Shown: positions 47,817 through 64,000, counted from the first letter of the stretch. The stretch is 64,000 bases of DNA from Candidatus Hodarchaeota archaeon (GCA_048886685.1 JBHLKM010000008.1:96001-160000); one strand, 5' to 3'. The notes: generated by a model not told the origin, from the letters alone. Numbers and translations are program-made.

Positions 47817-49166
47817 CTATAGCCGAATATAGCGTTCTCTTTCCCAATCACTCACAACAACTCTATAAGCATCAAATTCCTCTAATTTAGCATAGTAGTA
47901 ATTCTTAAATGCTGTTTCACCAAATATTTCTTTCATTGATTCAGATTCTTTAAACTCCAATAACGCTTCATGTAAACTACCGGGTAGAGATACAATACCT
48001 TCCTTTTCCATTTCTTTACTGGAAAGATGGTAAACATTTCTATCTGTTGGTTCAGATATTTCAATGTCATCTGATAATACACCTTCCAAACCTGTAGTTA
48101 AAAGCACGGCAAACTGAAGATATGGATTTCCAGACGGATCTGGGCATCGAATTTCACATCGAGCGGCATTAGGTCTACCGTGAAAATCAGGTACCCTAAT
48201 CAGAGGTGACCTGTTACGAAATCCCCAAGCAAGATATACAGGGGCCTCATAACCTGGGACGAGTCTTTTATATGAATTTGGCCAGCTACTTAGAACAGCA
48301 CACATGGCTCTTGAATGTTTTAATTGACCTGCTATCCATTTCTTCATTGTTAGTGATATATTATCTTGATCGTTTTCATCATAAAATGCATTATTACCAT
48401 TTTTCCATAATGACTGATGTACATGCATACCTGAACCATTAATTCCATGAAAGGGTTTTGCCATGAAAGTTCCAGTAAGATTGTGGTTTGCTGCAACCGT
48501 TTTGACTATTGTTTTAATAGTTATTGTATTGTCAGCGGTATTCACAGCCTCATCATAACGAAAATCAATCTCATGTTGACCATAAGCAACTTCATGATGA
48601 ATACACTCAACATTAATTCCCATTGCATCACTATATTCTGCAATTGTATATCTTATCATCTCATTTTTATCATATGGATCATAATCGAAATATCCTCTCA
48701 TATCTGATGGTTTAAATTCTGCTTTAGTATCTGGAGTTAGTATAAAAAATTCCATTTCAGGTGCACAAAAATATTTATAACCATGTTCTTTTGCCTTATT
48801 TGTAGCACGCTGTAAAATATAACGAGGATCCCCCTCATATCGTTCACCATCAGGTTTATAAATATCACAAATAACTCGAGCAACCTTGTTTTCTTTTCGC
48901 CATGGTAAGAGGTAAAAAGTGCTCGGATCAGGAAGTGCAACTTTATCAGATTCCTCAATAGCTCCATATCCTGTTATCGAACTTCCATCAAAATTTTCTC
49001 CTACTTCAAAAATATCTTCAATTCTCTTAGAATTAATCTCAAATGATTTAATAATTCCATGAATATCTGTAAATTGAAGATAGATAAATTTAATCCCTTC
49101 CTCCTTAATCCTCTCTATCACAGCATCACACATTTCTTTCCTTTTTGGATTATCTTTTTCAATCAT
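47817..49166 (-). CDS. glnA: Glutamine synthetase type I (GSI-alpha-like)
   Basis: FDGSSI, PEMEFF, HHEVAYGQHEI, FMAKP, NGSGMHVHQSL, NSYKRLVPGYEAP, EIRCPD. Confidence 0.97.
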   Translation of the reverse strand: MIEKDNPKRKEMCDAVIERIKEEGIKFIYLQFTDIHGIIKSFEINSKRIEDIFEVGENFDGSSITGYGAIEESDKVALPDPSTFYLLPWRKENKVARVICDIYKPDGERYEGDPRYILQRATNKAKEHGYKYFCAPEMEFFILTPDTKAEFKPSDMRGYFDYDPYDKNEMIRYTIAEYSDAMGINVECIHHEVAYGQHEIDFRYDEAVNTADNTITIKTIVKTVAANHNLTGTFMAKPFHGINGSGMHVHQSLWKNGNNAFYDENDQDNISLTMKKWIAGQLKHSRAMCAVLSSWPNSYKRLVPGYEAPVYLAWGFRNRSPLIRVPDFHGRPNAARCEIRCPDPSGNPYLQFAVLLTTGLEGVLSDDIEISEPTDRNVYHLSSKEMEKEGIVSLPGSLHEALLEFKESESMKEIFGETAFKNYYYAKLEEFDAYRVVVSDWERERYIRL

Positions 49167-49192: not shown

Positions 49193-49564
49193 TTATTCAT
49201 AAATTAGAGATGAATCTTTTTTACTCCTCATAAACGTGGAAAAATCTTTTATGGTTAATGCTTTTCGAATGTTTTCTGAATTCAAATTTAACTTATTATT
49301 AGGTTCACAATTCCAGTCGTAGGATGCTCTTTCGTGAATTGCAAAATTATTGGGTTCTGGAGTTAAATCTTTAATTAGTTCACAAGTTTTACTTGTTTTA
49401 AACGCAATTGTATCAATACCTAAAAAAATTGAACAATTCCATTTATTATTGTCTCGACCTCCAAAATCTGTTAATCCACTAGATATAGAATAATCTTCAC
49501 ACTCCTGACAGATTTTACTATCATAACGGTACTTTTTTCCACAAACAGGACATTTTATTTCCAT
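49193..49564 (-). CDS. Uncharacterised Zn-ribbon protein, first gene of the glnA unit
   Basis: CPVCGKKYRYDSKICQEC, KWNC, YDWNC; ends LIYE; 26 nt upstream of glnA. Confidence 0.75.
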   Translation of the reverse strand: MEIKCPVCGKKYRYDSKICQECEDYSISSGLTDFGGRDNNKWNCSIFLGIDTIAFKTSKTCELIKDLTPEPNNFAIHERASYDWNCEPNNKLNLNSENIRKALTIKDFSTFMRSKKDSSLIYE

Positions 49565-49661
49565 TTTTTCATATTCTCTCTCATTTAATTTTTGATTTAA
49601 TTAATTTTTCAAAAAGAAATATACGTATATTGCCAAATTAAATCAATTTTTATTTTTATAT

Positions 49662-49913: not shown

Positions 49914-50417
49914 ATGGTTGTTAATTCTAAGATAGTTAACTTATCTGATTTGGATAAGAAGATCCTAACTAAACTAGACGAAGATGGAAGATTATCATTT
50001 CGTCATCTTGCTAAAGACTTAGAAGTAGGTTCACCTGTAACCATTAAAAATCATGTTGAGAATTTAGAAGAAAAGGGTGTTATTAAAAATTATGGAGTAC
50101 AGATTGATTATGAAAAACTAGGGTATGATATTATCGCTCTTATTGAATTAACGGTTTCAAAAGGTAAAATGCTTGAAGTTGAAAATAAATTAGCCCAGAA
50201 CCCAAACATTTTTGCTGTGTATGATATTACAGGAACATATGATGCTCTTATTCTTGCGAGATTTAAAACTAGGGCGGAGCTAAGCGAAATGATAAAAGAA
50301 GAAATACATACTTCTCCCTATGTTGAACGAACTAATACTCATATAGTTTTAAATATTATTAAAGAGGAATTTTCTTTTAAAAATTTGATAGAAAAAGAAG
50401 GAATAGAACTTCAATAG
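49914..50417 (+). CDS. Lrp/AsnC family transcriptional regulator
   Basis: LSDLDKKIL..LDEDGRLSFRHLAKDL HTH, LEEKGVI, VYDITGTYD. Confidence 0.95.
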   Translation: MVVNSKIVNLSDLDKKILTKLDEDGRLSFRHLAKDLEVGSPVTIKNHVENLEEKGVIKNYGVQIDYEKLGYDIIALIELTVSKGKMLEVENKLAQNPNIFAVYDITGTYDALILARFKTRAELSEMIKEEIHTSPYVERTNTHIVLNIIKEEFSFKNLIEKEGIELQ

Positions 50418-50777: not shown

Positions 50778-50791
50778 GGGAACTTGTTCCC
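50778..50791. promoter_or_regulatory. Candidate operator GGGAACTTGTTCCC
   Basis: GGGAAC-TT-GTTCCC palindrome 26 nt after TATA-like TTATAAAT (50744-50751). Confidence 0.65.
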
Positions 50792-50861
50792 ACAAATAAA
50801 AAAATAAGACATAAAAGAGGTAAAAAAAAATAAAAAAATTTTTTGAAAGGAGGTTTTAAAA

Positions 50862-51816: not shown

Positions 51817-53157
51817 ATTCAACAAGAGATAATGTTATTTCCAGGATGCGTGATAGTAAATAGATTTCCCTTTATTGAAGTCTCAATAAGGAAAGTATTT
51901 GATCATCTGGGAATATCTTTTACTGAAAATCCCAAATTTTCTTGTTGTCCAGATCCAAATGGCATTAAAAATTCTAATAAGTTATTATATTCTATTACCG
52001 CAGCTCGCAATATTGCTCTTGCTGAGTTAGAAAATAAAGCAATATTAACACCCTGTAACGGATGCTTTAGCACATTAAAAAAAGTCAAAAGTGAAATCGA
52101 TACAGATCACCATTTCAAAAGGAAAATCAATAGTTATTTAGATAAGATTGATATCAAGGTTGAGGGAAAGACTGAAGTATTCCATATGGTTGATTTCATT
52201 TTCAAATTTAAGAGAGACACTATCAGGGATAATTTAATATATCCACTGACGGGATTAAGAGTTGCTGTGCATTATGGATGTCATTTTCTTAGACCAAGCA
52301 ATAAAGTTCAGATAGATGATCCCTTGGAACCAGCAATCTTTGATGACTTAATTAAGGATTTAGGTGCTGAAAGTATAGATTATAATCTTAAAATGGATTG
52401 TTGTGGGGGAATTCTCGAGAGAGCTGGAAATTCAAGTTTATCATTAGAAATTATTAAAGCAAAATTAGAAAGCATGAAAGAAAAAGATGTGGATTGCATT
52501 GTTGTTTGCTGTCCTCAATGTTATATGCAATTTGATCATTTACAACAGGAAATGAAAAAATTTGACTTTAATTATGACATTCCTGTGCTATATTATTCAG
52601 AATTATTATCTCTCGCATTAGGGCTAGATCTCCGAGATATTATTAAAAAGCATCATAGAACCCAAGTTGATTCACTTTTTGAAAAGATCGATCTCATCCA
52701 AGAGAAAAATAAGGAGATAAGAAAATTCTTCGATCTTACCTTTTTACTTAAATGCTATTCATGTGGGGCATGCGATGACGATTGTATTATCTCAAAGATG
52801 ACCGAATTTAGTCCGAAGGCACTCATAGGCAATATTATCAAAGGAAAAATTGATCAGGTAATCTCAGATCCTTCTATTTGGATGTGTCTCGACTGTTATT
52901 TGTGTTATGAGCTTTGTCCGATGGGAATTGGCCTAATTGAAATTTTTACTATATTACGAAATTTAGCAAAAGAAAGAGGTTTTATCACTAAAGGATTTGA
53001 AAAGGAATTTAACGCTTTTTACAAAAAAGGAATAGTAGGAATGCCTTCGAAGGCAGCACGATCTAGAGTTGGATTACCATCACATATACCGGATGTTGGA
53101 GATTTGAAAGATTTGTTTAATGTAGTAGAAAGAGAGAATACAAAACTAGAGGAATAA
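51817..53157 (+). CDS. HdrB-HdrC fusion (two CCG domains plus 2x[4Fe-4S])
   Basis: FPGC, SCCP, PCNGC, HYGCH, DCCGG, CPQC, then CYSCGACDDDC and CLDCYLCYELCP; start is ATT 51817 (after GAGGT) or ATG 51832. Confidence 0.88.
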   Translation: MQQEIMLFPGCVIVNRFPFIEVSIRKVFDHLGISFTENPKFSCCPDPNGIKNSNKLLYSITAARNIALAELENKAILTPCNGCFSTLKKVKSEIDTDHHFKRKINSYLDKIDIKVEGKTEVFHMVDFIFKFKRDTIRDNLIYPLTGLRVAVHYGCHFLRPSNKVQIDDPLEPAIFDDLIKDLGAESIDYNLKMDCCGGILERAGNSSLSLEIIKAKLESMKEKDVDCIVVCCPQCYMQFDHLQQEMKKFDFNYDIPVLYYSELLSLALGLDLRDIIKKHHRTQVDSLFEKIDLIQEKNKEIRKFFDLTFLLKCYSCGACDDDCIISKMTEFSPKALIGNIIKGKIDQVISDPSIWMCLDCYLCYELCPMGIGLIEIFTILRNLAKERGFITKGFEKEFNAFYKKGIVGMPSKAARSRVGLPSHIPDVGDLKDLFNVVERENTKLEE

Positions 53158-53160
53158 TTT

Positions 53161-54351
53161 ATGAGATGGGAAAATTATACCTCATTACCAGAGCAGTATA
53201 GGAATCAGAGAGTATTCGATGGATGTGGGATTTCTGGATTTATAAATGTTGATGGGAGTAGGGTTAGAGGGGATAAAGTCATTGATATGCTATGTATTTT
53301 AAAGGAGAGGGAAAATGGATTAGGAGCTGGGTTTGCGGCTTATGGTATTTATCCAAAATATAAAAATTATTATGCATTTCATTTTCTCTTTGATAATATT
53401 TCTGCTAAAACAAAAGTTTTAGATTATTTAGATAATAAAGGTACAATTATCGCATCTGAACCAATTCCAACTAATACTCCTTTAAATGTTGATAATCCAC
53501 CGATTATTTGGAGAGCTTTCTTCGATCCTAATAAAAGTGGAAGTCTGGAACCAGACGAAAAAGTCGTACAGATTGTAATGGAAATAAATGCGAACATAGA
53601 AAATGCTTTTGTTATGTCTTCCGGTAAAAACATGGGTGTGTTTAAAGGAAATGGGTGGTCACATGAAATTGCCAATTTTTACAAAATTTCAGATTATGAC
53701 GCTTTTATGTGGTTAGCGCATTCTAGGTTTCCTACCAATACTCCTGGATGGTGGGGAGGTGCTCACCCCTTTAATTTATTAAATTGTTCAGTTGTTCATA
53801 ATGGAGAAATAACATCCTATGGAACAAATAGAAGGTACTTAGACTCGTTTGGATATAAATGCACTCTCTTCACCGACACAGAAGTCATTGCATATTTATT
53901 TGATTTATTATGTCGTAAGCATCAAATACCCTTATCTATCGCCACAATTGCTCTAGCACCACCATTATTTGGTGAGATCGAAAAGTTAAGCAGGAGAGAG
54001 CAACTAGTGCTTAAAAGTATAAGAGCAACTTATCGGAGCGCGATGTTAAATGGACCATTTTCAATTGTGGTTGGTTTTTCAAATCCAATTCCTACAATGA
54101 TCGGATTATCTGATAGAAAAAAATTAAGACCCCTTGTAATTGGAATTTCAGATGATGAAAACACTATATATATGAGTAGTGAGGAAGCATCTTTCAAACG
54201 ATTGACGTTATCTAATAGAAATTTCTCAATGAAAGAAATATGGCATCCCAAAAGTGGGTCAGCAACGATTGTCATGCTTGGTAAAGGATTGATAACAAAT
54301 GGCCTTGAAACACCAATAAAAAATTTAAAATTAACAATGATGGAGGCTTAA
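53161..54351 (+). CDS. Glutamate synthase amidotransferase (Ntn) subunit, GltB1/GlxB-like
   Basis: Propeptide then DG|CGISG, ERENGLGAG, HSRFPTNT, AHPF, VHNGEI, TDTEV. Confidence 0.92.
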   Translation: MRWENYTSLPEQYRNQRVFDGCGISGFINVDGSRVRGDKVIDMLCILKERENGLGAGFAAYGIYPKYKNYYAFHFLFDNISAKTKVLDYLDNKGTIIASEPIPTNTPLNVDNPPIIWRAFFDPNKSGSLEPDEKVVQIVMEINANIENAFVMSSGKNMGVFKGNGWSHEIANFYKISDYDAFMWLAHSRFPTNTPGWWGGAHPFNLLNCSVVHNGEITSYGTNRRYLDSFGYKCTLFTDTEVIAYLFDLLCRKHQIPLSIATIALAPPLFGEIEKLSRREQLVLKSIRATYRSAMLNGPFSIVVGFSNPIPTMIGLSDRKKLRPLVIGISDDENTIYMSSEEASFKRLTLSNRNFSMKEIWHPKSGSATIVMLGKGLITNGLETPIKNLKLTMMEA

Positions 54352-54354
54352 ATA

Positions 54355-55875
54355 ATGGCAATCGCGCATGAAATTATTAATTATTTTAAAGTTGATATAA
54401 ATAGAGAAGATTGTAAAAAATGTAAACGATGCATTAATCACTGTTCATTTGGAGTTTTGTCTTTTAATGGGGAACAAATAATTGCTGAGGATCATAAATG
54501 TGTTGCCTGTCAACGGTGTGCAGTTATGTGTCCTGGAAATGCGATAAGAATTGTTCAAAATGAGTCATTTTTGCCACCTCATGGACATTATACAAGAAAA
54601 ATTCGAAATATAATCTGGGCTCAATCTGGGAATGGAGGTGTTCTACTATCCGCAACTGGTAATGATAGACCAATCCGTTCAATATTCGATGATTTACTTC
54701 TAGATGCGTGCCAAGTTACTAATCCCTCTATCGATCCCTTAAGAGAAACAATTGAAACTAAGATAATTTTTGGGAGAAAACCAAAGAAATTAACTTTCAT
54801 CTCTCATCCGGATGATTTAGAAAAAATTTCTTTAAAAACCAACTTGATGCCGAATTTTGAGATTGATATGCCAATCATGGTAGGTCATATGTCTTTGGGT
54901 TCAATTAGTTATAATGCATGTCAGGCAATTTACCAAGCAGCAACTGAATTAAATATTGTAGCAGGATCAGGTGAAGGGGGTTTACATCCAGATTTCTATG
55001 AATATGCTCCGAATATAATTACAGAAGTTGCTTCTGGAAGATTTGGAGTGGATATTAATTATCTTAGCAATGCTGCGGCGTTAGAAATAAAGATCGGGCA
55101 AGGAGCTAAACCAGGGCATGGTGGTCACTTACCAGGTGAAAAAGTTAGCAGTTTAATCTCGCAAACCCGAATGATTCCAAAAGGAAGCGATGCGTTATCA
55201 CCTTATCCCCATCATGATATTTATTCAATAGAAGATTTAGCTCAATTGATAGCTGCCTTAAAAGAAGCAACAAGATATAAAGTTCCTGTAGGAGTAAAAA
55301 TAGCGGCAGTTCATAATTCTGCTCCGATTGCAGTTGGAATTGTTAGAGGAAGTGCTGATTTTCTTACTTTAGACGGATTCCGTGGTGGAACTGGTGCTGC
55401 TCCAAGAATTATTCGGGATCATGCAGGAATCCCCATTGAATTAGCCATAGCTGCCGTTGATGAAAGATTAAGACAAGAAAATTTACGTGAAGAAGTAACT
55501 TTAATAGCTGGCGGTTCAATTCGATATTCTGCTGATTTAATTAAGGCTATTGCTCTAGGCGCTGATGTAGCAATGTGTTGTATGCCAGTTTTAATTTCAA
55601 TGGGATGTAGAGTTTGTCAGCAATGCTTCAGGGGACTATGTCCCTGGGGAATTGCAACTCAACAAGAATATTTGGTAAAACGATTAGATGTTGATGTTGC
55701 GAAAAATAGAATAATTAATTTATTTCATTCTTGGAATGAAGAATTAAAGGAAGTTTTAGGAGCGATGGGAATTGATTCTATAGAATCGCTCCGCTCAAAC
55801 CGAGACCGATTAAGATATATAGGTCCAAATCCGCGTATTGCGGACATTTTAGGAGTAAAACATGCAGGTGAATAA
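54355..55875 (+). CDS. Glutamate synthase FMN subunit with N-terminal ferredoxin, GltB2/GlxD-like
   Basis: Two CxxCxxCxxxC motifs; MSLGS, GEGG, ASGRFG, EIKIGQGAKPGHGGHLPGEKV, PHHDIYSIEDL, CRVCQQCFRGLCPWGI. Confidence 0.95.
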   Translation: MAIAHEIINYFKVDINREDCKKCKRCINHCSFGVLSFNGEQIIAEDHKCVACQRCAVMCPGNAIRIVQNESFLPPHGHYTRKIRNIIWAQSGNGGVLLSATGNDRPIRSIFDDLLLDACQVTNPSIDPLRETIETKIIFGRKPKKLTFISHPDDLEKISLKTNLMPNFEIDMPIMVGHMSLGSISYNACQAIYQAATELNIVAGSGEGGLHPDFYEYAPNIITEVASGRFGVDINYLSNAAALEIKIGQGAKPGHGGHLPGEKVSSLISQTRMIPKGSDALSPYPHHDIYSIEDLAQLIAALKEATRYKVPVGVKIAAVHNSAPIAVGIVRGSADFLTLDGFRGGTGAAPRIIRDHAGIPIELAIAAVDERLRQENLREEVTLIAGGSIRYSADLIKAIALGADVAMCCMPVLISMGCRVCQQCFRGLCPWGIATQQEYLVKRLDVDVAKNRIINLFHSWNEELKEVLGAMGIDSIESLRSNRDRLRYIGPNPRIADILGVKHAGE

Positions 55876-56713
55876 AATTACTATAGTTAATGATATTGAA
55901 ACAAAAGATTTTGGAATTGGAATTGAAGAACCATTAGAGATAGATGCTGCTCCAAATGGAGATCCTCTCGATTATAGAGAATTAAATTCCATGATTCATA
56001 ATGCTGTTAATAATAATTGTAAGAAAATTGTGTTAAACAATGTTTGTGGGCAAAGATTTATAGGTGCTGCTTTACAAGGAGATGTAGAAATAAGTATTAA
56101 TGGGGTTCCTGGTAATGATTTAGGGATTTTTATGGATGGTCCAAGAATTAGTGTTTTTGGGAATTGTGAGGACCAATCTGGTAATACCATGAATCAAGGA
56201 ACAATGATAATTGATGGGGATGGAGGAGATGTTATAGGCTTATCTTCAAGAGGCGGGAAGATTTATATCAAAGGTGATGTTGGATATAGAGTTGGTATTC
56301 ACATGAAAGAATATGAAGACCATTTTCCAATATTAATAGTCGGTGGCACAGCTAAAGACTTTTTAGGTGAATATATGGCTGGTGGTAAAATTATTGTACT
56401 TGGTTTAAAAATTTCCTCAAATAGTAGTATTTCTGAGAGTCCACAGTCAATTTGTGGTACGGAATTAGGAACAGGGATTCATAGGGGTGCTATTTATCTT
56501 CGAACAGAAGAAAATGTAGAGGATAGGTTAGGTGTTGGAGCAAAAGTTTTCAATCTTTCAAAAGATGAACAAGAAGAAATTGATACTTACGTAGAAGATT
56601 TCTGTAAAACATTTAATGTTCCCCTAAGTGCTGTTGATAATAAACCTTTTAAAGTTATTAAACCAATTTCAAAAAGACCTTTTGGTGGAAATTATTGTAG
56701 CCAATTAATCTAA
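55862..56713 (+). CDS. Glutamate synthase beta-helix subunit, GltB3/GlxC-like
   Basis: GQRFIG, PGNDLG, GNTM, GYRVGIHMK, DFLGEYMAGG. Confidence 0.9.
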   Translation: MQVNKITIVNDIETKDFGIGIEEPLEIDAAPNGDPLDYRELNSMIHNAVNNNCKKIVLNNVCGQRFIGAALQGDVEISINGVPGNDLGIFMDGPRISVFGNCEDQSGNTMNQGTMIIDGDGGDVIGLSSRGGKIYIKGDVGYRVGIHMKEYEDHFPILIVGGTAKDFLGEYMAGGKIIVLGLKISSNSSISESPQSICGTELGTGIHRGAIYLRTEENVEDRLGVGAKVFNLSKDEQEEIDTYVEDFCKTFNVPLSAVDNKPFKVIKPISKRPFGGNYCSQLI

Positions 56714-62430: not shown

Positions 62431-62444
62431 GGGAAAAAATTCCC
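62431..62444. promoter_or_regulatory. Candidate operator GGGAAAAAATTCCC
   Basis: Exact GGGA-N6-TCCC in the divergent guaA / NfnA-like intergenic region. Confidence 0.55.
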
Positions 62445-62561
62445 ATAAACAGAGTGATTTACGATATATTTTTTTTAGGTCGAATTATTCTTCAATTAGG
62501 AGGAACAAAATTATTTTCGAATTGAATCTTCAAATAAATCTTGAATATAATAAGAATCGCA

Positions 62562-63446
62562 ATGCCTTTTAAAATTTTAAAAAAAATCCAACTTGGAAAA
62601 AGTGGTACATTATTTGAAATTGATATTTACGCCCCGCTAATAGCTAAGAAAGCATTTGCAGGTAACTTTATACTTCTTAGAATTAATGAAACAGGGGAGC
62701 GAATTCCCTTAACAATTGCTGATTATGATACTGATAACGGAACATTAACTATCGTTTTTCAAGTAATTGGAAAAAGTACAAAACTTCTTTCTACTCTGAA
62801 TGTAGAAGATGAAATTTTAGATGTTGTTGGACCATTAGGTAATAGAATTCATACTGAAAAATATGAAAATTCTGTTGTTATTGTTGGGGGTGGTGTTGGT
62901 ATAGCAGAATGTTATCCCCAAGCAAAGGAATTGAAAAACATAGGAAATAACATTATATCGATAATAGGAGCAAGGACGAAAGATTTAATATTTTGGAAAG
63001 ATAAAATGGCTGCTGTAACTGATACATTAATTATATGCACTGATGATGGAAGTGAAGGAATAGAGGGATTTGTAACAGATCCACTTAAAAAGCTACTCAA
63101 AACTGAGAAAATAAGTGTTGTGATAGCGATTGGACCATTAATCATGATGAAGAACGTTTCTCTTTTAACAAATGGATTGAATAATTTGCCTAAAGTAAGA
63201 ACCTATGTATCTTTAAATACAATAATGATTGATGGTACTGGAATGTGTGGGGGATGTCGATTCTCAACTCATGATGGTAACATATATTTTGCATGTGTTG
63301 AAGGACCTGATGTAGATGGGCATATAGTTGATTTTGATAATCTTTTAAATCGTTCTAAAAGATTTATTAAACAAGAACAGGAATCTTTAGAAAATTTTGA
63401 ACATGAATGTAAAGCTCTAGAAAAAACAGGGGGAAATGCATCTTAG
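62562..63446 (+). CDS. NfnA/SudB-like FAD/NAD-binding [2Fe-2S] protein
   Basis: GERIPLTIAD, VVGPLG, GGGVG, TDDGS, DGTGMCGGCR, ACVEGP; ATG at 62562. Confidence 0.92.
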   Translation: MPFKILKKIQLGKSGTLFEIDIYAPLIAKKAFAGNFILLRINETGERIPLTIADYDTDNGTLTIVFQVIGKSTKLLSTLNVEDEILDVVGPLGNRIHTEKYENSVVIVGGGVGIAECYPQAKELKNIGNNIISIIGARTKDLIFWKDKMAAVTDTLIICTDDGSEGIEGFVTDPLKKLLKTEKISVVIAIGPLIMMKNVSLLTNGLNNLPKVRTYVSLNTIMIDGTGMCGGCRFSTHDGNIYFACVEGPDVDGHIVDFDNLLNRSKRFIKQEQESLENFEHECKALEKTGGNAS

Positions 63447-64000
63447 AATGGAGTTCCAAACACCATTAATAAAAGTTTTGCTTGAGAATAAGGCTAAGAT
63501 TTTAGAGGCAAAAAGATATGGCACTGAATCTGAATTTCAAAACTTCCTTAATTTAATAATTAATGCAGAAAAACAACGACAAGCTGTTTTAAAAGGGATA
63601 AAAGAAATAGGCTCTATAAATATCCAAAAATTAAAGAATAATTTGGGCATAACAGAAGAAGCCCTGATTTATAATGTAGAGTATTTAAAAGAATTAGGTT
63701 CTTTGGAATTTATTGGGGAAAAATCAAGATTTTTTCAAAAAATAATTGAAAAAAATGGTTATACTGGCTTATTTCCAAATGTTTCAATAATAAGAGACAG
63801 AAATCTATGTTGTGGTTGTGGTTTATGTGATTCTATCTGCCCTGTAAAAGCAATAAACTATACAGGTAATACTTTTGAGCTAAAGGAAGAAGTTTGTTTC
63901 AACTGTGGGTTGTGTTTTTCATGTTGTCCAAGATCTTTCTTCCCAAAAACATTGAAAAGAATTAAAAAAAATACTCATTTAAATTCCAAATTTTCAGAAC
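63436..64000 (+). CDS. Partial CDS: helical/wHTH-like N-domain plus 2x[4Fe-4S], FrhB-type N-terminus (truncated by window edge)
   Basis: MHLRMEFQTPL...; IIRDRNLCCGCGLCDSICP...CFNCGLCFSCCPRS, open to the window end; overlaps the upstream stop. Confidence 0.7.
   Translation, partial: MHLRMEFQTPLIKVLLENKAKILEAKRYGTESEFQNFLNLIINAEKQRQAVLKGIKEIGSINIQKLKNNLGITEEALIYNVEYLKELGSLEFIGEKSRFFQKIIEKNGYTGLFPNVSIIRDRNLCCGCGLCDSICPVKAINYTGNTFELKEEVCFNCGLCFSCCPRSFFPKTLKRIKKNTHLNSKFSE

Follow-up and report, generated by a model that had tools for sequence, protein, structure and literature searches.

Here, we describe a four-gene cassette in which a fusion of the heterodisulfide reductase (Hdr) subunits HdrB and HdrC directly precedes the genes of a split glutamate synthase (GOGAT), and we consider it probable, judging from sequence and gene order, that the fusion is the dedicated thiol-oxidising electron-input subunit of this enzyme. 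The cassette lies in a window of 64,000 nucleotides (nt), the whole stretch analysed, from Candidatus Hodarchaeota archaeon (GCA_048886685.1 JBHLKM010000008.1:96001-160000); coordinates are counted from the window start. The nearest relatives of this 4.4-Mb genome (100% complete, 8% contamination) are labelled Promethearchaeota, and we read its source as a Lokiarchaeia-type Asgard archaeon. Electron input is favoured because the fusion and the synthase genes co-occur in one direction only, because their linkage is kept through changes of gene order and across domains of life, and because the fusion is exchanged with an NAD(P)H-type module.

In the mechanism that we propose, the four genes would make a single glutamate synthase in which the fusion replaces GltD or FrhB as the electron-input subunit. 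Release of ammonia from glutamine and reduction of 2-iminoglutarate by flavin mononucleotide (FMN) are common to all glutamate synthases (GltS); here, GltB1 would perform the first and the FMN of GltB2 the second. The two non-cubane clusters of the HdrB part would oxidise a thiol pair to a disulfide, which is Hdr chemistry in reverse, as in TfrB, and the two electrons would travel from the HdrC cubanes to the ferredoxin domain of GltB2, then to its C-terminal cluster and finally to FMN. Complex formation, the direction of the electrons and the identity of the thiol are what we infer. The likeliest thiol pair would be the dihydrolipoyl-lysine of a small carrier protein, which NADH would re-reduce by way of lipoamide dehydrogenase, and the net reaction would be that of an NADH-GOGAT wired through lipoate. 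A dihydrolipoyl protein is thus our leading, though tentative, candidate for the donor. With the same caution, one could speculate that the cassette represents a third class of glutamate synthase, powered by a dithiol instead of by ferredoxin or directly by NAD(P)H, in which protein-bound dihydrolipoate gives up its electrons to non-cubane iron-sulfur (Fe-S) clusters, to be passed one at a time to FMN.

Our estimate of the energetics suggests that a thiol-driven GOGAT is feasible and that the reverse reaction is not favoured. We put the acceptor couple (glutamine + 2-oxoglutarate)/2 glutamate at -0.05 V. With this estimated acceptor, dihydrolipoamide at -0.29 V (PMC6067878) would provide a standard driving force of about -46 kJ/mol. 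The coenzyme M/coenzyme B (CoM/CoB) couple, whose potential has been revised to -281 mV (PMC12054007), would provide -45 kJ/mol, and -18 kJ/mol at -143 mV, near the older figure.

The fusion and its linkage to the split glutamate synthase

By every sequence test, gltB1-gltB2-gltB3 is a split archaeal-type glutamate synthase, and it is the only complete set in the genome. In GltB1, the nucleophile Cys22 stands behind a 21-residue propeptide and the glutamine-binding motifs at 187 and 213 are intact. GltB2 combines an N-terminal 2x[4Fe-4S] ferredoxin domain, the FMN synthase barrel and a C-terminal four-cysteine cluster motif (C418, C421, C424, C429), and matches the GltS structures of the PDB with E about 1e-56. 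The Ntn cysteine, the glutamine motifs, the FMN/2-oxoglutarate loops and the C-terminal cluster cysteines are all present, and invariant across 37 homologues. The four open reading frames (ORFs) are co-oriented (Table 1), with spacings of 3 nt, 3 nt and a 14-nt overlap in the order fusion-gltB1-gltB2-gltB3. The initial annotation had reported a B-then-C Hdr fusion with both CCG domains intact, ending 3 nt before the amidotransferase gene, and FMN and beta-helix subunits that follow with a 3-nt gap and the overlap; the domains, the cysteine census and the ORF coordinates agree with it. Its statement that GltD and HdrA are missing holds for the operon, while the genome does encode a GltD/NfnB-FrhB protein (from 63436) and, elsewhere, HdrA.

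The fusion runs from two Pfam CCG domains (residues 1-290) to a 2x[4Fe-4S] HdrC domain (residues 307-366 and beyond). It has all ten CCG cysteines and both CxxCxxCxxxC motifs (eight ferredoxin cysteines), and these are conserved across the fusion family. The CCG cysteines are invariant, and therefore the thiol-reactive site is under selection. The AlphaFold model of the fusion (pLDDT 91) matches HdrB of 8RVY, 5ODC and 7BKB in Foldseek with TM 0.91-0.92 and a root-mean-square deviation of 1.7-1.9 Å. As a fusion scored on single-subunit models, it reaches 264 bits with the HdrB model TIGR03288 (cut-off 345) and 80 bits with the HdrC model TIGR03290 (cut-off 160); with the TfrB model NF004898 it scores 60 (cut-off 385). 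A FastTree phylogeny of the HdrB domain grouped 69 of the 72 fusions, with weak support (83), so that a single origin of the fusions is not established. The first ATG of the fusion is at 51832. An in-frame ATT at 51817, 8 nt after an AAGAGGT element, would add five residues; since homologues have a few residues before the first CCG cysteine, and the added ones align with the first strand of solved HdrB, this start is plausible, though unproven. We rejected a plain methanogen-type HdrBC as the identity of the fusion, and likewise the readings of the cassette as a pseudogene or an assembly artefact.

We surveyed 398 Asgard genomes, many of them incomplete, with a fusion profile, scoring four candidates per genome. 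This recovered 51 full-length copies, from 50 genomes, and 4 more that are cut by contig ends; unfused HdrB scored lower, separated by a clear gap. The fusion is present in 54 of the 398 genomes and gltB1 in 66; all fusion carriers (54/54) have gltB1, and within this survey the fusion was found in none (0/332) of the gltB1-negative genomes. Fifty of the 51 full-length fusions lie directly upstream of gltB1, and the 51st runs up to a contig edge, with gltB1 of that genome standing at the start of another contig. This linkage is far beyond chance, and chance adjacency was rejected. The carriers belong to several families, to other orders and to at least three families outside the class. The synteny proposed as a check in the initial annotation is thus conserved, in Asgard archaea and in the bacterial loci described below. 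Fusion and GltB2 identities correlate (r = 0.91, 58 pairs), as expected from shared ancestry, and we do not count this as co-evolution. As a separate observation, the intact fusion of one Loki-like locus is preceded by another CCG gene, which is split (L098:4808-5784) and perhaps a decayed duplicate.

Twelve genomes have gltB1 without the fusion. Seven of them carry, within the cassette or at its flank, genes for a NirB-like flavin adenine dinucleotide (FAD) oxidoreductase and for a 4Fe-4S protein, a pair that looks like an NAD(P)H-type module taking the role of the fusion; one genome (G305) has one cassette of each kind. The GltB2s of the flavoprotein-module cassettes form their own branch (SH-aLRT 99) in a quick, midpoint-rooted IQ-TREE search, from which we claim no donor or order of events. 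In another fusion-less genome, G190, the locus is cut by the contig end. A further arrangement was seen in four loci (L028:2051-7736, L029:3200-10084, L030:7776-14753 and L145:3-4149), where a glutamate-synthase-like pair consists of an FMN protein of about 820 residues and an amidotransferase-GXGXG fusion of about 811; it is followed by EtfB and ferredoxin-EtfA in L028-L030, adjoins glnA in two Loki genomes that lack the cassette, and is possibly a third module, linked to electron transfer flavoprotein.

Several observations weigh against an electron-input role. The remaining four genomes, G266, G269, G271 and G032, keep intact gltB1-3 with neither the fusion nor another adjoining module. They nest among carriers in the tree, and in G269 (100% complete) a 3' remnant of the fusion still directly precedes an intact gltB1 (L040:3027-3230); these are therefore losses, a recent one in G269. 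The fusion is possibly dispensable, and the enzyme may work without it. These losses would suit a ferredoxin-type GltB1-3 fed by free ferredoxin or by the neighbouring NfnA/FrhB-GltD (NADPH, F420H2), with the fusion in an accessory role such as side disulfide reductase, electron overflow or redox sensor. GltB2 does have its own ferredoxin domain, nfnA and the FrhB-GltD fusion lie 6 kb away behind the same palindromic box as the cassette, and FrhB-type partners have been proposed for methanogen GltS (PMC3448663). However, the fusion is never found without gltB and occupies the slot of the flavoprotein module in other genomes, and the nfn neighbourhood is confined to close Loki relatives, being found in neither other classes nor bacteria. 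We therefore regard feeding by ferredoxin or Nfn as improbable.

The hdrA genes also count against electron input by the fusion on its own: the genome has about 17 of them elsewhere, along with 14 mvhD and 7 other hdrB genes, and HdrC is the normal partner of HdrA. The fusion could bind an HdrA from another locus, and GOGAT would then drain the high-potential branch of that complex, or its thiol product, so that glutamate synthesis would be coupled to bifurcation. The initial annotation had offered this link to an HdrA bifurcating complex as an alternative, and it finds no support in synteny: hdrA or mvhD stands beside the fusion in no locus annotated with HdrA reference or Pfam calls. Among eight bacterial carrier genomes, hdrA is clearly present elsewhere in six, partial in one and not found in one, but G398, a 4.4-Mb metagenome-assembled genome of completeness not known, has the cassette and no hdrA match. 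In addition, the ferredoxin face of HdrC would be needed for GltB2 if GltB2 is the exit, and PDB HdrC matches to the fusion begin only at residue 28-37. An HdrA in trans is, in our view, unlikely. Taken together, the genomics (co-occurrence, linkage through rearrangements, exchange of modules) favours the earlier proposal of HdrBC as the electron-input module, and the four fusion-less genomes tell against it.

Bacterial members and the identity of the thiol

The suggestion of a lipoyl donor comes from bacteria. A search of 1.84 billion representatives returned about two dozen full-length B-then-C clusters, with members labelled Schekmanbacteria, Nitrospirota, Planctomycetota, Deltaproteobacteria/Acidulodesulfobacterium and Bacillota. 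The distant members examined all lie in a gltB run (11/11), one of them ordered gltB3-hdrBC-gltB1-gltB2, and in 25 further bacterial genome loci the fusion is likewise linked to gltB. One locus, L117, reads glnA-gltB1-gltB2-gltB3-lpdA-lipB-lipA-free lipoyl domain-hdrBC, with lpdA, lipB and lipA all over NCBIfam cut-offs. A second gene order was seen in eight loci from a metagenome scan: lipoamide dehydrogenase (Lpd) lies just upstream of the fusion, and five of the eight also have a free lipoyl domain. Overall, nine loci have Lpd within four genes of the fusion and six have a free lipoyl domain next to it, in at least two gene orders. This evidence is direct, in that the operon carries the whole chain of NADH, Lpd, lipoyl carrier, HdrBC and GltB. 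Two bacterial cassettes contain additional genes, in Nitrospirota one for a ferredoxin-domain protein ahead of the fusion (L118:1829-2491), and in Planctomycetota one for a HEAT-repeat protein that separates gltB2 from gltB3 (L116:11999-13087).

In the present genome, the connection is indirect: the lipoylation genes are unlinked to the cassette and comprise a LipS2-Lpl-LipS1 operon and three lipoamide dehydrogenases over cut-off. The genome also encodes a glycine-cleavage GcvH and an orphan GcvH-like protein that carries the lipoyl lysine (G000:C1:249768); the orphan is the sole GcvH-family match in four well-assembled carrier genomes. The orphan, the three dehydrogenases and the operon would be the carrier-side candidates here. 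Two side observations concern these genes. The orphan carrier (L139:2769-3161, on G000:C1) scores below the GcvH cut-offs and is a candidate partner for many Hdr complexes. Two of the lipoamide dehydrogenase genes (L141:957-3157; G000:C2:326638-328853) are each preceded by a conserved gene of about 200 residues without Pfam match, and one of these pairs adjoins a large hdrA cluster.

The case for lipoate has its own counter-evidence. All the lipoyl-linked operons fall into a single clade and so amount to roughly one event, and in the window, as in all Asgard loci, the cassette has neither lpdA nor a free lipoyl domain beside it. The orphan GcvH (123/132) and LipS1 (125/132) are near-universal in the family, and because of this the co-distribution of lipoyl genes with the fusion does not discriminate. 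Seven fusion-bearing Asgard genomes have lipoamide-dehydrogenase matches below cut-off only, G155 far below. Finally, the equivalent of the CoB-binding Arg201 is invariant in Loki fusions (45/45) and absent in the lipoyl-linked ones (0/8), which could mean that a different, anionic small thiol is the substrate in Loki fusions.

The same architecture may use, in Lokiarchaeia, a small-molecule thiol pair (CoM/CoB-like or other) shared with TfrAB and Hdr complexes. A soluble thiol/disulfide pool is likely in this genome, given its TfrA-TfrB and its many hdrB, hdrA and mvhD genes; the true tfrAB lies at G000:C9:109741-113031, with TfrB over cut-off. At the revised potential, the reaction would be as favourable as with lipoate. 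We mapped the residues that form the CoM/CoB pocket of HdrB, Gly46, Gly198, Arg14, Arg201 and Arg240 (PMC13261682), onto the fusion. The equivalents of the CoB-binding Arg14 and Arg201 are kept, but the CoM side is unlike methanogen HdrB: Gly46 is replaced by Asn and Gly198 by Ile or Ser, and the second CCG loop is one residue shorter. Arg240 is replaced by His, a position that varies in true HdrBs too. TfrB and two HdrBs of the same genome retain the canonical methanogen-type loops, unlike the fusion, whose loops are similar to those of the lipoyl-linked bacterial members. Moreover, ComA, the one CoM route searched for, was not found in the genome, and the same fusion serves bacteria that have no reason to make CoM/CoB. 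We regard a small-molecule thiol as a weaker candidate than the lipoyl carrier, somewhat unlikely overall, and some other dithiol as quite doubtful; both are variants of the thiol-oxidising role rather than departures from it. The earlier analogy with methanogen thiol:fumarate reductase therefore survives in part. A thiol donor is probable, and a donor of CoM/CoB type is weaker than a lipoyl dithiol, because the pocket loops differ and because relatives share operons with the genes of lipoamide dehydrogenase and of a lipoyl carrier.

Gene neighbourhood and candidate regulation

The cassette is embedded in genes of nitrogen metabolism and redox chemistry (Table 1). Upstream are a type I glutamine synthetase gene, glnA, which frequently adjoins the cassette in relatives, and an Lrp regulator; downstream are the FMN-only GltS paralogue, pepF, guaA, nfnA, a winged helix-turn-helix (wHTH)-FrhB-GltD/NfnB fusion and glutamate dehydrogenase.

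Table 1. Features of the window
Feature	Position	Strand	Evidence and remarks
HdrB-HdrC fusion	51817..53157	+	ORF 51832-53157 from first ATG, 441 aa; Pfam CCG x2 + Fer4_8; TIGR03288, TIGR03290; cysteine census; structure model + Foldseek
GltB1, class II glutamine amidotransferase subunit	53161..54351	+	396 aa; GATase_2; motif positions; single copy in genome
GltB2, 2x[4Fe-4S] + FMN Glu_synthase	54355..55875	+	506 aa; Glu_synthase 425 bits + Fer4; PDB GltS matches; cysteines
GltB3, GXGXG beta-helix subunit	55862..56713	+	283 aa; PF01493, E 5e-31
Palindromic box, GGGA-N6-TCCC type	50778..50792	.	Upstream of zinc-ribbon gene and operon; candidate nitrogen-regulon operator
Double zinc-ribbon protein, 170 aa	51108..51620	+	DZR_2 weak; between box and fusion
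Type I glutamine synthetase glnA, divergent	47817..49166	-	TIGR00653 506 bits, over cut-off
Lrp/AsnC regulator	49914..50417	+	Recurrent cassette neighbour; candidate binder of box
FMN-only glutamate-synthase-like gene, 555 aa	56971..58638	+	Glu_synthase E 4e-15; separately boxed
nfnA, then start of wHTH-FrhB-GltD/NfnB fusion, then glutamate dehydrogenase	62541..64000	+	Rival electron source

The palindromic box recurs at 49661, 50778, 56938 and 62431, and its 7 matches in the window against 2.8 expected are marginal alone. Of 43 Asgard loci, 16 have it upstream of the fusion, where 1.0 would be expected; these loci are mostly close kin, and where the zinc-ribbon gene is missing the box lies closer to the fusion. 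It also precedes orthologues of gltS2 and nfnA/guaA, and close relatives keep it in front of three features, namely the cassette, the FMN-only paralogue and the divergent region of guaA/nfnA. We propose the box, from its sequence and distribution, as a candidate nitrogen-regulon operator. An NrpR domain was not found in the genome, and the Lrp regulator is the nearest candidate binder. A sigma-70 promoter scan gave fewer sites than shuffles, the model being unsuited to an archaeon. The zinc-ribbon gene, which is present only in close, genus-level loci, is probably co-transcribed with the fusion. It and a paralogous small zinc-ribbon gene (49193-49564) flank the Lrp gene, and the two travel with glnA and the cassette in close relatives.

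The cassette shares its upstream box with glnA, and an assimilatory role is therefore favoured. The opposite idea would be a non-assimilatory complex, either one that oxidises glutamate with a disulfide as acceptor or an enzyme like N-methylglutamate synthase. MgsABC, which makes up such a system, is homologous to split GltS; that system is linked to the type III enzyme GmaS and has no redox partner, whereas the glutamine synthetase beside the cassette is of type I, its gene falling below cut-off with TIGR03105 (type III/GmaS). The amidotransferase nucleophile and the glutamine motifs are intact, a glutamate dehydrogenase is already in the genome, and oxidation of glutamate by a disulfide near -0.29 V would be uphill by about 33 kJ/mol by our own estimate. 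Although Lokiarchaeia have been predicted to live as fermentative heterotrophs (PMC9723677), a non-assimilatory complex is the least probable of the readings and very unlikely.

Two other genes of the region merit description. The FMN-only paralogue is 27% identical to GltB2 over 225 aa and adjoins the cassette in some relatives only, outside the core cassette; the protein has an N-terminal cysteine cluster, and in several Loki genomes its gene adjoins the cassette in either orientation. The GltD/NfnB-type gene fused to FrhB starts at 63436, about 6.7 kb downstream of the cassette, behind nfnA and the box at 62431. It encodes 911 aa, with a probable winged helix, an F420-binding FrhB domain and a GltD/NfnB domain, and extends beyond the window end (63436-64000; L001:7437-10172). 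It lies between nfnA and glutamate dehydrogenase, occurs in G020 and G023 too, and could represent an Nfn linked to F420. Elsewhere in the genome, hdrA or mvhD matches with an in-frame TGA (G000:C2:239233, C2:318035, C6:216667, C6:145648 and C11:121550) are consistent with selenocysteine forms.

Relation to known enzymes and significance

No HdrBC- or lipoyl-linked glutamate synthase was found described in the literature, most subscription journals being outside our coverage, which accords with the initial annotation that no characterised enzyme of this kind is known. The closest published idea is the FrhB-bearing, putatively F420-dependent FGltS. Methanogen FGltS(I)/(II) (PMC3448663) and the FrhB10 clusters of anaerobic methanotrophic archaea (ANME; PMC9012536) are genomic predictions of a split GltB1/B2/B3 with an FrhB-like fourth subunit. 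Like them, the cassette divides GltB among three genes, has a ferredoxin domain in GltB2, lacks GltD and includes a dedicated redox gene as its fourth. In contrast, where they encode an FAD-binding F420H2 dehydrogenase, its fourth gene encodes a flavin-free CCG/ferredoxin protein, for which a thiol pair is predicted as donor, and the FrhB domain sits in a separate nfn operon, with no FrhB/FdhB-like subunit in the cassette. With NAD(P)H-GOGAT (GltBD; 1EA0, 2VDC, 6S6S, 7MFM) and ferredoxin-GOGAT (1LLW), the cassette shares the amidotransferase, FMN synthase and beta-helix domains and their motifs; it differs from both in spreading the enzyme over three genes and in having an additional ferredoxin domain at the N-terminus and the four-cysteine C-terminal motif, and from the former in having no GltD in the operon.

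On the Hdr side, the fusion is 35-40% identical to HdrB and HdrC of methanogen HdrABC (5ODC/5ODR, 7BKB, 8RVU) and shares their fold, the ten CCG cysteines, equivalents of His154 and Arg14 and the two HdrC cubane motifs. It departs from them in its fused B-then-C order, its scores below NCBIfam cut-offs, its altered CoM-side loops without Arg240, and its tie to gltB with no hdrA/mvhD linkage. TfrB similarly combines CCG domains and ferredoxin clusters proposed to draw thiol electrons for a flavin-dependent reduction. However, the fusion lacks the [2Fe-2S] domain, has the reverse domain order, is of HdrB rather than HdrD type and does not lie beside tfrA. The lipoyl-linked bacterial operons have a parallel in the sHdr-LbpA system of sulfur oxidisers, where genes of Hdr-like CCG proteins go together with those of a lipoyl carrier, of enzymes that assemble lipoate and, in some cases, of dihydrolipoamide dehydrogenase. 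In that system HdrA and sulfurtransferases take part, and the proposal is that lipoamide becomes reduced as sulfur is oxidised (PMC6067878). In the cassette, by contrast, biosynthesis would draw on the oxidation of dihydrolipoyl, and the linked operons have an E2-type lipoyl domain as carrier. The shdrC1B1AHC2B2, lbpA and sulfurtransferase genes are absent at the window locus and at all related loci.

In the literature found, the donors of split archaeal-type glutamate synthases and the substrates of HdrB-like proteins in non-methanogens are predictions only. The cassette ties both questions to a small, soluble and expressible system of four to six genes, with glutamate formation as the readout. 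In databases, the fusion proteins are annotated as heterodisulfide reductase, which misleads metabolic reconstructions. If the proposed mechanism is true, thiols would join NAD(P)H and ferredoxin as reductants of GOGAT, and lipoate, both in Asgard archaea and in several bacterial phyla, would serve biosynthesis as a two-electron carrier that can diffuse. Lipoate and, beyond methanogenesis and sulfur oxidation, HdrB would each gain a function new to them, and some of the numerous orphan HdrBs that Asgard archaea encode could then be expected to act on a lipoyl carrier.

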